Positions 31,101-37,100 of a DNA stretch of 64,000 nt are shown here, piece after piece (position 1 is the first letter of the stretch; the number at the start of each line of letters is the position of its first letter). Made by a program: the position numbers. The stretch is from a virus (taxonomy: Duplodnaviria > Heunggongvirae > Uroviricota > Caudoviricetes), in the IMG/VR virus record IMGVR_UViG_2939521961_000011; one strand, 5' to 3'.

Positions 31101-34100
31101 ATCAGGAACGGGAGCATCCGTATACAGATAAATCCCCAGCCCGAACTGATTGTTGGTCAGTGCGCCTGACAGGCGGAACTTACAGGTCAGTCTGCCGCCC
31201 TGTGTCAGCAGGGTAATTGCGTCATCCACCGGATGCGTCAGGGACCAGGTTTTATTGCTCTGCTTGGTGATCTTAAATACACCATCTGACAACTGAATTC
31301 CGCCATCCTTAATGCTCCAGCCCTGCGCAGCAGCCTCTCCGGCTGCCGGCAGCAGGGAGATTGTGCGAACGGACGTATCTGCAGACGGACCCGATGGCGT
31401 GTTGCCGCCGGGCGAGGGTTTGATTTCCGGTGCCTTACCACTGATGAAGGCGGAGGTGCGCCCGGCTGCGTTCAGAATAGCGGTTGCCAGACGATCCGGA
31501 ATAATGCTCCTGCGCGCCCATGAACTGAAATGTGTCGGGCGGTTTGATGATACCTGGTTTCCATTCGTTCTCGATGCCGCACCGTAATATCCTGATGCCG
31601 GAATATCCGGATCTTCTGCCGGCGCGTTAGTGGCGGTATTGACACCGTTACCGTCTGTCATGAAGGGCACAAAATAAACGCCCTCACTCTCCCTGTTTTT
31701 ATACCCGCCGTACACGGTGTCGTACTGGGTAGCGTATGTATTTTTCCAGTAATACGTCGTGTCACCACAAATCCACGGCACATCTGCAGCACTGCCACCA
31801 TGGCACTGCGCGTTAAACACGGAGAGGTCAGCACGAAACTGTGTCAGCATGGCTGTAAACAGCGCAGGTTGCTGTGCGTGGGTGGCGGCGCTCATGTCAA
31901 ACTCTCCCTGCATCCAGCACACCGCCAGCAACACATTTTTCGGGTTCTTCTGTAATGCAGCTTTAGTGCGCGCAATCAGGTCCTGATATAACGGTTTACC
32001 CACACCCCAGCGTGCCGAATCCTGGCTGGCCCCCGTGTCCGCACTGAATGTCCCCTCCGCGCCCTGGGTGAATGCCGAACCACCACGACAGCATGGTACC
32101 AGCAGGATCCCCGCGTTATTCGGGATATACGGGAGCAGTTTTTTGGCAATATGTAAGCCCTGGCCGACACAGCCGTACTGCCCTTTGCTCAGGTCTGCCT
32201 TCGGATGATTCAGCGTACTCATATCCTGCACATCATGCAGGCAGTGGTCGGCCGGAATAATATCGTTATATCTGCATGCAGCCCCACCCGGCGTAACTGT
32301 ACTGCGGCGCGCCAGCTGTTTAATGCGCGGATCCGGAGCATCGTATTAATCCGGCAGCGGAAGCCCTTCACCGTAAGCCATGGCATTGGACTGCCCGGCC
32401 AGTACGATGACGTAGTACCAATCCGGCTCAGTTGCACCACTGACCACCACATCACCTTCTGCTGTAATCGCCTGCATCAGGGTATAAGGGGTTATGGCCA
32501 CCGGACTACCAAACGGCTGCCAGCCCTCTTTCAGTTTGTGTGTCAGCTTTTCCGCAAGGTCTGACGGCGACGCCGCCCTGACAACATCATAATGTTTAAT
32601 CGACATCGAATTTCTCCCGTGTACAGGAACAGAGTTAAAAAGCCGGAACCGGAATCAAATTACAGGATGGCCATCTGCCAGTGGCTGGTCGTAAAAAAAA
32701 GGCCACGCCATGCGCAGCCGGAAATAAAGGGATAACGATGATAGTTTGAGAAAAACAGAAACAACACTTTTGCGGCAAAGCATGGTGCCGGGTGCCTCCC
32801 GGTGAATTCAGTATCAGCACCTGAATCCGCGATTATCCCATATACCTGGTTGCTGATCGCCCCTCCGCACAGGGGGATTCACCATGCAGTAGTATTTTTA
32901 ATAAACAGCAAATAAAAAAATCAAGCATTATGCAGGCTGTTTCTTTTTATCACCGGCCACAGCAATACCACAATGCCGCAGACCAGCACCCCATCCGCCA
33001 GCACCGACATGATTCTGCTGGTGAAATCCACCATCACCACCAGAAACAGCAGGAGTGCAGCCACAGCCAGGCGCAGTTTTACCGTCACTGGTGATTCTCC
33101 AGACGAAGACCCAGAACACCGGCAATCTCTTCCAGCACCTTGCGCTCTTCCGGCTCAATTTCGCCGTCTGCCTCCGCAATGGCCACCGCCACATCCAGCA
33201 CATCTTCCGCTTCACGCGTATCGTGTTTCACATCTTCAATTTCACGCAATGCCGCTCGACGACCAATTTTAAAGTTCGTATCCAGCTGACCGATAATGGT
33301 TGCGCTAATCGCATTAATTTCTGACGTAAACGCGGACAACGCAGGCTGGTTACGCAAGATCTGCTCGATCTTCGCTTTCTCTGAAGCCTCACATTCACCA
33401 TCTGCATAGGCCACCAGATAGGCAGCATTAATAACCGCCTGTGCCAGATCACGTTTCTCAAACTTTTTAATTTCCACTGCCGCTCGGCGGGCTTTTTTAC
33501 CAAAAATACCAAACATCGTGACGTTCCTTTGGGTGGGTGAGCCAACGCCCGGGAGCGATCTGCCCACAGAGAAAGTCACACTGACCACTCCGTAAGCTCA
33601 CCCCCGAAAGGCTCTGTGGTTGATATGCGCCGGGCGTGGCGCGGATACAAAAAAGGCCGCCAATAGCGACCTCAGTTACGGGATTATTCTGGGGTTAAAC
33701 GACTGTTACTCCCCCCAGACAAAATCATCACTTCCTGTTCGATGCGAGCCATAGTGAACCTCGTACTTATCTCCCATCTTTCTTGCTTCCGTTTCTGCGT
33801 CTTCCTCTGTCGCAAAAACCCCAACAAGATGCCAGGGCGAGCTTCTTACCACAGCCCAACCTTTAACCCATCCTTTGTTGTCCTTATCTTCCATTAACAC
33901 TTCAGAAACAAACATATTTATCTCCTTGTGGGTACCCAGAGATATTTTATGATTGCTCCCGGTCAGATCAATAAAGTGGCTTCAATTTTGCCTTAATGAT
34001 TGAGGTGTACTGGCAATAGCGGACACTACCATTTGTTCTTTTTTTAAGCAGCCATCTGATGATATTTTTCCCTGAAGGCTGCCGGGGAGATATTCCCCAG

Positions 34101-37100
34101 ACGAGAGTGACGACGCTGACGATTGTAGAAAATCTCAATGTATTCCCGTATTACTGAGATGGCTTCATCCCGGTTATTAAAACGATAGTGGCTCAGGCTC
34201 TCATTTTTCAGCGTTCCCCAGAAGCTTTCCATCGGAGCGTTGTCGTAACAGTTACCTTTACGCGACATTGATGTTTTCAGACCAAACTGCTCCTGTATGA
34301 CCCGGTAATCGTATGCGCAGTACTGTGAACCTCGATCAGAGTGGTGGATTAGCCCGGCAGGTGGGCGCTGGCTCCTGAGCGCCATAAACAGAGCTTTACC
34401 TGTCAGCTCTTTTGTCATGCGCTCTCCCATGGCGTAGCCGACAATTTCGCACGTATAAACATCTTTGATGCCAGCGAGGTACAACCATCCCTCCTGTGTG
34501 GCAACATACGTCAGGTCCGCCACCCAGACCTGATTTGGTGCTGTAGGAGCGAACGTCTGGTTCAGCAGATTTGGCGCAACTGGCAGATTGTGGTTCGAGT
34601 TCGTAGTCGCTCTGAACTTGCGTTTCTGCTTACAGCGTAGCCTTAGCTCCTTACGAAGACGTGCCAGTCGGTCACGACCAACGATGATGCCATTCTCTGC
34701 CAGCTCCGTCTGGAGCCGCCGGGTTCCATATGTTTCGCGAGTGCGGATATGTGCCACCTTAATCTCCAGTTTTAGCCGCTCATCACTTTGTTTTCTGTCT
34801 GAGGGTTCATGCTGTACCCAGTTGTAATAACCGCTCCTGGATACACCAAATACCTGACACATCGCTTCAATGGGAAATTGTTGTCGCCATTGTTCGATTA
34901 ACGCGTATTTTTCAGCGACTCCTGTGCAAAATACGCTGTTGCTTTTTTTAATATATCTCGCTCAAGGCGAGCTTCATTTAACGCCTTACGCAGTTGCAGA
35001 ATTTCAGATTCCAGTTCAGCCACCGTGCGGGAACCAGGAGTACCGAGCCCTTTTCTGGCGGCGGTAACCCATTGTCCTAAAGTGCCTTCAGGAAGAGATA
35101 ATCGGGAAGCGCCTTCACTGATCGAAAGTTGATTTTCAAGAACCGTTCTGACAGCTTCGGCTTTGAACTCTTTAGAGTAACGTTGGGTTTTTCTGCTCAT
35201 TATTAGCTCCTTCTGATGCCATTCTATTTCAGGAAGGAGTGTCCGTTAAACTCAGGCTACCTCAGATCAAATCAGGGTGATTGACGGAATCGTACACCAC
35301 CTCAATATTTTCATCCGTGGCGTCGATAAGATATTCTTTTACATAAGGACCTGTTGATTTTCCATGAAATACATCTTCAACAAGTACACTCTCCCCCTGA
35401 ACAACACGAAAACTAACTTCTGTTTCGAACGGACCAATCGTCACCATCAGTTTTTTCACATAGCCTCCTGATAAGCACTCGATTTATTAGTTAATGGTGT
35501 AACGCAGATACAAAAAAAGGCCCGCAAAAGCGAGCCAAGTAAATAAATATGGCGCGTTGTACTGGATTCGAACCAGTGACCGATTGCTTAGAAGGCAATT
35601 GCTCTGTCCGACTGAGCTAACAACGCATGATGCTGATAATGGACCGCCATCGGGAACTTGAACCCCGCACAGCCAGCTTCGAAGGCTGACGCTCTATCCC
35701 GATGAGCTAATGGCGGTATGTGATGGTGGCCCTTGCTGGATTTGAACCAGCGACCTGGCGATTATGAGTCGCTCGCTCTCACCACTGAGCTAAAGGGCCG
35801 GGCGCAGGATAATAACGGTACGTAACTAATTCTGCAATATCATCCGTTCTGACTGACTACATTCTGAACTTCCCTGACCGTCTGCTCAAAACGCCCGCTC
35901 TCCAGCTCAACGCCAATTGCACGACGCCCCAGCGCCATTGCTGCTTTGACGCTACGGACATAAAAAAGCCAGCCACTGGGGGAGGCTGGCGAAACTCGTA
36001 GAGCAAAAGTGTTGTTACACTAACTTCGTCACAGGGTTATCCTGCAATACTCAAAATACACAATATTTACAAAACTAATAGTATACAAGGCGATCTTTAA
36101 GATTTTGTTATTAATTGTGGTCGCACCTTCCTTTCTGTGTACTTTCCGTATAGCTCACAGGATTCTGGGTACAAAAAAACCCGCGCATCGGCGGGTTCTT
36201 AAATCTTATCAACGGTAGACATACAAAGCCCATCATTGGGAAAATCTTATCCATATTTTTTGAAAAATGCAAGCATCATGTCGTCATCTTCGGCGAAAAC
36301 CATTTATCTTGTCACCTTTCTCAATTGTATCTCTGCATATGCTTCTTCCTGCCAGCACTTTGTAACCAGTTTATCAATGACATCTGCATATCCTTTGTAC
36401 CACTGATAATCCGTCAGGTCTGGTACCAGCTTCTGGACATGAAGCCGCGCCAGTGTGGTTGGTAAACTGCTAAACCGGTTTCCATTGCAACGCCCACAAA
36501 CCTTATAAACAGGCGTGCCATGAAGCCGGGTTCTTTTTTCATCCAGGACAATACCTTTACCCTTGCACCCTCTGCATGCTGTGCTGACTTCTCCCTTACC
36601 ATGACAATGCTGACATAGTTCCTTCACCCACTCTTCCTTAATAACAGATTCCCCGCTTCTGGAGTGTTTCACCACCTCGCGCAATACATTATGAAATCCA
36701 GTACCAGCACAATGCTCACAGCGAGCCTTACTTGCCGCAGACCTGGAATAATCAGCAAAGGCAAAATTCACAAGGTAAGGAATGATCTGTAGCCGGGTTT
36801 CTTCACTCAATTTATTCAATGTCGGGTTATCCAGTGCCATCGCGTAATTGAGCAGACCTTCAATCGCAAACTGAGGATCCTGAACACCAACTTTTGCCAG
36901 GAATAAAGCAAACCCAAGCGGTGCTTTTGACTGCACCATCCCCTGCGCAGCCATCACATCCGTAATTGTTAAACCACCAGAGCCTGTCGCCGGTGCGTCA
37001 TCGCTCAGTTTTGGAGATTTCGGGGAGTAATATTTCGGTAAGGCTTCAAGGTTCATGCTCGTTCTCCACTTACGCCAGTACGCCAATTGCCAGCGCACGA

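Follow-up and report, generated by a model that had tools for sequence, protein, structure and literature searches.

What does a lambdoid prophage of Escherichia coli carry in the place where Shiga toxin (Stx) phages carry their toxin genes? The question is raised by the virus record IMGVR_UViG_2939521961_000011, of which one stretch of 64,000 nucleotides, referred to here as the window, was analyzed. An earlier note, made from the sequence alone, had described four small co-oriented genes between the Q-tRNA block and nanS-p, and had suggested that they could form an uncharacterised moron module. The open reading frame (ORF) listing confirms the four genes and their coordinates, all on the minus strand (Table 1). 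They are two unrelated accessory cassettes: p74-p69, whose first gene is interrupted by an insertion sequence (IS), and tciA-tciB (tciAB), a gene pair encoding a TerB-domain protein and a small membrane protein of the DUF3927 family. The overall explanation that we favor, with reasonable though limited confidence, combines a variable cargo slot, two independent cassettes, and a mechanism for tciAB in which the membrane protein would hold or regulate its TerB-domain partner.

The interval from 35503, behind the post-tRNA terminator, to 32905, inside a small RNA (sRNA) gene of the STnc100 type, is almost certainly the variable cargo slot of the late operon of this prophage. Read along the minus strand, the Q gene is followed by three tRNAs, a 65-codon ORF, an IS3-family element, a 69-codon ORF, the TerB gene, a 55-codon ORF, nanS-p, and the holin and lysozyme genes. 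In alignments with the Stx2 phage 933W, homology (94.9%) extends through the terminators, the tRNAs (the counterpart of ileZ-argN-argO) and the post-tRNA terminator to 35503, and restarts at 32905; since stx2AB lies between the equivalent points of 933W, the interval 32921-35459 is almost exactly the stx slot, where the earlier note had placed it. Homology to the Stx1 phage 75/02 restarts at 32889, so that the right-hand recombination boundary of the stx/tciAB slot (32889-32905) falls within the sRNA gene. Sharp homology breaks, marking presence or absence of the cargo, are found against both phages as well as against the O157:H7 and JLK-2012 loci. The slot is thus identical to that of the stxAB operon in 933W and 75/02, from the tRNA terminator to the sRNA and nanS-p, while the cargo is unrelated and includes no toxin. 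In Stx phages, stxAB is transcribed with the late genes after Q antitermination.

Several observations separate the two cassettes, which the earlier note had treated as a single four-gene cluster. Across 5426 complete E. coli genomes, tciA-tciB DNA occurs in 840, at 3933 places (median six per genome, and up to 10 copies in a genome of Shiga toxin-producing E. coli, STEC), whereas p74-p69 DNA occurs in 110 genomes at 131 places. An O157:H7 prophage has the order tRNA-tciA-tciB-nanS-p with p74-p69 missing, and p74-p69 appears as an insertion when the window is aligned to it. A 26-bp terminator-hairpin sequence stands at both ends of this insertion (35532-35507 and 33669-33644, minus strand) and is single-copy in the O157:H7 locus, whose positions 3349-3374 are shared by the overlapping alignment blocks; the repeat suggests that cassettes are exchanged via recombination at terminator hairpins. 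The independence of the cassettes therefore rests on their differing genome counts, on the O157:H7 locus with tciAB only, on the repeat junction, and on the pairing of p74 with p69 in other genomes (see below). Moreover, phage JLK-2012 shares the tciAB cassette (33672-32940) directly after a different set of tRNAs. The GC content is 42.5% in the p74-p69 cassette, 51% in tciAB and 52% in the window, and a hairpin with a T-run follows each cassette according to both the terminator scan and the folding calculation.

The 143-residue TciA protein was described in the earlier note as TerB-like with two ADG-type motifs, and profile comparison supports this description: it matches the Pfam TerB family (PF05099) with 59.8 bits against a cut-off of 24.4 (E 3.9e-16), PHROG 632 over its full length (2e-68), and the solved TerB structure 2JXU_A with E 4.1e-08, residues 15-137 aligning to 21-144. 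It is 41% identical to TciA of phage P1, and RefSeq annotates it as WP_001299632.1, 'tellurite resistance TerB family protein'. The two motifs, AYADGECEASE and AEADGEIEPEE, follow the pattern D-G-x5-E, and their residues D39, E46, D117 and E124 do not vary among six phage homologues. The N-terminus is hydrophobic and polybasic: its first 18 residues carry a net charge of +3 to +7 in five phage homologues, as against 0 in classical TerB. Partial matches below the cut-off, running through the second acidic motif, were obtained to DjlA (9e-07) and DUF533 (5.7e-05). A longer, 167-residue version of the ORF starting at GTG 33588 was rejected, as all homologues begin with M-F/L-G, which places the start at ATG 33516. 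An overlapping ORF of 95 residues is also present at 32928-33215.

The preserved acidic motifs bear on the idea that the pair serves counter-defence, TciA being a TerB mimic that, with TciB, hampers Ter-type or other membrane-acting abortive-infection systems of the host. The pair is found in temperate and virulent phages alike, ter islands are common in STEC hosts, and phage accessory regions with the pair also hold Acb2/Tad1-type genes, all of which would suit such a role. Against it, motifs kept as in genuine TerB suggest a working domain over a decoy; we consider this reading very improbable.

The second gene of the pair, tciB, corresponds to the hydrophobic two-segment ORF of about 55 codons whose GTG start had been seen to overlap the TerB stop, and both hydropathy and family assignment agree with that description. 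The GTG lies within the GTGA at 33085-33088, with GGAG 8 nucleotides upstream. TciB matches Pfam DUF3927 with 62.3 bits (cut-off 25, E 4.3e-17) and PHROG 1470 ('TciB-like') at 4e-30, and is 50-70% identical to the TciB proteins of P1, Pollock and JLK-2012, the value for P1 being 50%. The ORF was said to be absent from the supplied ORF track; RefSeq does list it, as WP_000216636.1 ('DUF3927 family protein'), although gene callers miss tciB elsewhere. Two hydrophobic stretches surround a conserved D-F-T-S...A-D-G core, with K4, R6, K48 and R49 at the termini, a layout that, by the positive-inside rule, points to a hairpin whose two ends lie in the cytoplasm.

Two helices with basic termini are also the layout of class II holins, and the pair lies just upstream of the lysis cassette in lambdoid phages. 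TciB could accordingly be holin- or antiholin-like, with TciA as its cytoplasmic regulator, the two tuning the firing of the S holin. In P1, N4-like and jumbo phages, however, tciAB lies a long way from the lysis genes, in early or tRNA regions; neither Pfam nor PHROG assigns TciB to a holin family, these prophages carry a holin of their own, and knock-down of tciB in P1 causes no plating defect. A role in lysis timing is for these reasons quite improbable.

The coupling of the two genes is conserved well beyond the window. The order is the same, and the tciB start overlaps the tciA stop or lies no more than 3 nucleotides from it, in the window, JLK-2012, O157:H7, P1, Fostie, Pollock and ChrisDB. 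A scan of IMG/VR returned near-identical E. coli prophage copies only, and of these 80 closely related loci 79 keep TciB and 78 keep the GTGA overlap. Between the O26, O145 and O157 loci TciB does not differ at the protein level, while TciA varies, and half of the variable tciB sites (11 of 22) are synonymous. The family is narrow, with 62 cluster representatives among 1.84 billion, nearly all of 39-90 residues. Together with the conserved order and overlap, the link between TciA and TciB is supported by distant phage TerB genes that likewise have a membrane partner. In Pseudomonas phage AF, an unannotated 73-residue ORF with one strongly hydrophobic helix shares an ATGA overlap with the TerB stop (L006 2432-2653); the coupled layout recurs here, though the small membrane protein is unrelated. 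In Vibrio phage MS02, TerC and TerD are encoded beside TerB.

The TerB/DUF3927 pair is already known, and the proposal of an uncharacterised module has to be withdrawn for it: tciA and tciB are named in P1, catalogued as PHROG 632 and 1470 and annotated in RefSeq, and DUF3927 is a Pfam family. There are 131 phage records with a TerB homologue of the TciA type, the hosts being Vibrio, Escherichia, Erwinia, Pseudomonas, Klebsiella and Salmonella. TciA and TciB, abutting in this order, are shared by P1-like phages, the lambdoid phages JLK-2012 and Fostie, the virulent N4-like Pollock and ChrisDB, a jumbo phage of Erwinia. The earlier note had named a lack of conservation as grounds for refutation, and these do not apply: the small ORFs are conserved in phages both related and unrelated to this one. 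In P1, a TerB-like protein of 141-143 residues is followed by a DUF3927 protein of 54-55 residues with overlapping stop and start and adjacent tRNA genes, as here; the overlap is TGATG in P1 and GTGA in the window. The differences are the modest identity, only 41% for TciA and 50% for TciB, and the setting: the P1 pair lies downstream of ban promoters controlled by C1 operators, and the pair of the window in a Q-dependent lambdoid late slot. A counterpart of the P1 gene tciC is missing from the window, where the sole ORF after tciB (31 residues, 32833-32928) is unlike P1 TciC and lies within the sRNA. The names of the P1 tci genes were themselves given by homology only.

The adjacency to tRNA genes recurs in four unrelated phage types, namely this prophage, JLK-2012, P1 and the jumbo Erwinia phage (tRNA-adjacent stretches: L003 4756-4989; L004 1616-1769 and 3201-3276; L005 976-1444 and 3037-4010; window 35550-35799). 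A tRNA-tciAB module travelling as a unit was rejected, the tRNA-Asn and tRNA-Thr genes of P1 and JLK-2012 being only 59% and 76% identical, respectively.

The tellurite-resistance operon terZABCDEF (the ter operon), with TerB (2JXU) and TerC, shares with the pair the TerB domain with two D-G-x5-E motifs and the placing of a soluble TerB beside a membrane protein gene, and the TerC-TerB arrangement of phage MS02 brings this likeness inside a phage. The partner in the window is, in contrast, a 55-residue hairpin, and the polybasic N-terminus of TciA is missing from classical TerB; none of terC, terD, terE, terZ, terA or terF is found among the ORFs and annotations of the locus. In DjlA and YebE/DUF533, the TerB-type domain and its inner-membrane anchor belong to a single polypeptide. 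They share with TciA the placing of such a domain at the membrane and the partial profile matches, whereas in the window the putative anchor is a separate, coupled gene, no J domain is present, and TciA belongs to neither family.

From these comparisons we propose, tentatively and as the less probable part of our explanation, that TciB is a membrane partner of TciA. TciB would tether or regulate TciA on the cytoplasmic side of the inner membrane, and the two together would correspond to membrane-anchored TerB-domain proteins like DjlA, YebE or TerB-TerC in a split form. The tethering is suggested by the hairpin features of TciB, the polybasic N-terminus of TciA, the kept acidic motifs and the sub-threshold matches to DjlA and DUF533. 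Production of tciAB with the Q-antiterminated late transcript, in lytic growth and not in the resting lysogen, is suggested because tciAB follows Q, has a terminator directly in front of it and lacks a promoter-like site in the consensus scan, because homologues occur in virulent phages, and because the P1 genes lie downstream of promoters with C1 operators. The most economical guess is that tciAB acts on the envelope or ion homeostasis of the infected cell; until programmed lysis it might keep the membrane energised, or confer resistance to pore-formers or superinfecting phage.

Several points weigh against this proposal. The P1 genes tciA, tciB and tciC are non-essential in a CRISPR interference screen, and the papers found in the literature speculate from the ter operon, a functional test of phage tciA or tciB not being among them. 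No genuine TerB-DUF3927 fusion was found among the 62 TciB cluster representatives in an exhaustive HMMER search against 1.84 billion representatives. The single-sequence AlphaFold2 (AF2) model of TciA is all-helical and too weak to use (predicted local distance difference test, pLDDT, 54; predicted template modeling score 0.29). Phage 434 encodes TciB without any TerB gene, behind a 247-residue polytopic membrane protein lacking a Pfam match, so TciB can exist or persist alone. The present prophage is also decaying, as IS600 and a nonsense codon in nanS-p indicate, and expression of tciAB in this strain is therefore uncertain. With regard to the fusion search, three long TciB matches (P0151, P0166 and P0193) were rejected as fusions, since they look chimeric or frameshifted. 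The phage 434 region (L091 1612-2844) also has a 62-residue ORF after TciB, annotated in the record as a putative membrane protein.

The main competitor of the membrane-partner proposal is the moron idea of the earlier note, that is, lysogenic conversion or defence: tciAB, and perhaps p74-p69, would be expressed in the resting prophage and guard the lysogen against superinfecting phages or pore-forming colicins. We regard this as unlikely, although parts of it have support. Presence or absence of the cassettes and the terminators bracketing each of them are as expected of morons, and to these are added the TerB homology, the literature that ties the ter operon to phage inhibition and colicin resistance (the Phi and PacB phenotypes), the location of tciAB in the stx slot and its multiple copies in STEC genomes, and p74-p69 homologues beside SIR2, Band_7 and Acb2/Tad1-hairpin genes. 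Against it, a terminator lies immediately upstream of tciA, and a crude consensus scan, which a weak or non-sigma-70 promoter could escape, found no promoter-like site before the gene. The same scan gave one 9/12 match upstream of p69 (33971-33944), and the total number of sites found did not exceed the shuffled expectation. Homologues are also found in virulent phages, N4-like and jumbo, for which there is no lysogen to guard, and P1 tciABC stands behind C1-repressed promoters. The ter phenotypes require TerC, TerD and TerE, which are missing at the locus. The defence context that had been suggested also found no match to a known system: all four proteins lack a significant hit to the PADLOC-DB defence models, the best (E 0.0056) being to a candidate model over 36 residues.

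Turning to the other cassette, the 74-codon gene that had been reported as truncated by an IS3-family element is p74, which IS600 cuts at codon 65. The element has the expected length of about 1.26 kb, orfA and orfB transposase genes with a frameshift, and a 3-bp target duplication. When IS600 and one copy of ATC are removed, the sequence gives a 74-codon gene equal to WP_000735807.1 of the IS-free locus of O26:H11 strain 11368. A 56-codon ORF (33968-34138, minus strand) runs from the IS600 end into the p74 remnant and closes with the last nine codons of p74 (IIKAKLKPLY); it is probably meaningless.

Insertions into this cassette are recurrent. Relative to the intact O26 cassette, five different, independent IS junctions fall within 235 bp of p74-p69 in different STEC strains (6209-6444 of the IS-free O26 locus L002; about 35349-33850 in the window). 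IS600 follows p74 codon 65 in this window and about codon 37 in strain CFSAN027346, and lies within p69 in opposite orientation in strain 7_26_9A, so that three of the five are clean IS600 insertions with differing sites and orientations; the two junctions in strains 2013C-3492 and RM8988 involve another IS3-family element, at the p74 stop and the p69 start. The annotation shows tciA and tciB as intact at each of the five loci. The recurrence may reflect an AT-rich insertion hotspot, mere tolerance, or selection against the cassette.

Such damage could also mean that the whole cluster is a decaying remnant, non-functional passenger DNA in a defective prophage, in keeping with the split p74, the nanS-p nonsense codon and the repeated IS hits on p74-p69. 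Yet both tciA and tciB are undamaged and their products equal widespread RefSeq proteins, TciB is unchanged between serotype loci in which TciA varies, half of its variable sites are synonymous, and both gene pairs are conserved across genera. We give the remnant explanation hardly any credence.

The second gene, p69, is equal to WP_000498121.1 and has 17 homologous protein clusters with 60-99% identity in E. coli, Salmonella, Xenorhabdus and metagenomes; 24 columns are invariant, including S-P-W-H-L and Y-G-S-x-R-x-G-S-D-D-F. A p74 homologue with 34-44% identity is encoded directly upstream of p69 at all the enterobacterial and metagenomic loci examined, namely those of a Xenorhabdus chromosome, of two metagenomic prophages and of phage mEp237. 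In mEp237, the order is kept and p74 and p69 correspond to gp60 (35% identity, E 1e-14) and gp61 (65%), but there and in one metagenomic prophage the pair follows the lysis genes, whereas here it precedes them. Only p69 reaches Pseudomonas phages, in which the upstream gene is not detectably related to p74. All p74 homologues belong to PHROG 2571 and p69 to PHROG 4280, existing families without assigned function, and neither gene is therefore new. p74 and its homologues lack a Pfam match, and a word-indexed homologue search for p74 gave just 4 close matches. The AF2 model of p69, built from 11 sequences, has a pLDDT of 60 and a beta-beta-alpha-beta order, for which Foldseek found no match in the PDB better than E 0.9. 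Around the homologues lie genes typical of accessory cargo, namely lysis genes and those for Acb2/Tad1-hairpin proteins, SIR2 and Band_7; one contig also has tciAB there. In this metagenomic contig, SRR10254147_26 (1-5700), SIR2_2, tciA, tciB, an antirepressor, the p74-p69 homologues, Band_7 and an Acb2/Tad1-hairpin protein follow one another; its tciB, missed by the gene caller, starts at 2561 and overlaps the tciA stop.

Table 1. Positions of the cargo slot features and of the flanking genes in the window.
Feature	Position	Strand	Evidence
Antiterminator Q gene	36304-37098	-	Pfam Antiterm
tRNA block downstream of Q	35550-35799	-	ARAGORN, Rfam tRNA; 94.9% identity to 933W tRNA region
tRNA-Met/Ile2(CAT)	35724-35799	-	ARAGORN
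tRNA-Arg(TCG)	35640-35716	-	ARAGORN
tRNA-Arg(TCT)	35550-35626	-	ARAGORN
Terminator-like hairpin with T-run after last tRNA, left slot edge	35519-35536	-	Scan; fold -13.8 kcal/mol, z -5.3; terminator upstream of stx annotated in 933W
p74 5' part (PHROG 2571), 65 codons, TGA from IS600 end	35262-35459	-	ORF, PHROG match
Target duplication ATC, 3 bp	35265-35267 and 33998-34000		Read from sequence
IS600 (IS3 family), 1264 bp	34001-35264	-	Pfam HTH_Tnp_1 and rve; RefSeq product name; junctions against IS-free locus
IS600 orfA	34898-35200	-	Transposase ORF
IS600 orfB	34044-34862	-	Transposase ORF
p74 3' remnant, last 9 codons and stop	33968-33997	-	Sequence reconstruction; IS-free O26:H11 locus
p69 (PHROG 4280), 69 codons, second gene of p74-p69 cassette	33706-33915	-	Equal to WP_000498121.1
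Second terminator-like hairpin, p74-p69 junction and 5' edge of tciAB cassette	33653-33673	-	Scan; JLK-2012 homology begins at 33672
tciA, 143-residue TerB-domain protein	33085-33516	-	Pfam TerB, PHROG 632, 2JXU, P1 TciA, RefSeq
tciB, 55-residue predicted two-helix membrane protein (DUF3927)	32921-33088	-	Pfam, PHROG 1470, hydropathy and charge
STnc100-family sRNA gene (related to PasD)	32744-32913	-	Rfam RF02076, 102.4 bits against gathering 47, full model length
Third terminator-like hairpin, between sRNA and nanS-p	32701-32719	-	Scan; fold -12.8 kcal/mol, z -2.4
nanS-p (DUF1737, SASA esterase, DUF6645)	30756-32606	-	Pfam

Downstream of the cassettes, the STnc100-family sRNA gene starts 8 nucleotides after the tciB stop and precedes nanS-p; a list of genes that are conserved in the vicinity of the PasA and PasC sRNAs includes TerB. 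Compared with the O26:H11 copy, nanS-p has A in place of C at 32347, so that codon 87 (32346-32348) is a premature stop and no longer Ser; V608M is a second difference. Further Rfam matches above gathering are to the sok antitoxin RNA, the C4 antisense RNA, isrK and DicF; the coordinates listed for these matches are 39829-40003, 40712-40796 and 40822-40896 on the minus strand and 46482-46533 on the plus strand.

For the biology of Stx-type phages, these results describe a modular slot consisting of tRNAs, a terminator, cassettes edged by a repeated terminator hairpin, an sRNA and nanS-p, a structure that helps explain how cargo is swapped. Within it, tciAB is among the commonest occupants of a position that otherwise carries Shiga toxin, and it stays intact where IS elements have broken the adjacent p74-p69. 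The pair is also kept by virulent N4-like and jumbo phages and present in thousands of copies in pathogenic E. coli; it is a cheap and well-defined knock-out target. A bolder double conjecture, which as a whole we think improbable, is that p74-p69 could be an unrecognised counter-defence or toxic pair repeatedly silenced by IS elements in lysogens, and that TciA-TciB could be a split, phage-borne version of a membrane-anchored TerB sensor, deployed in lytic growth by temperate and virulent phages alike. If true, this split sensor would hold the membrane or ion balance of the host, or blunt membrane-depolarising abortive infection or colicin attack.

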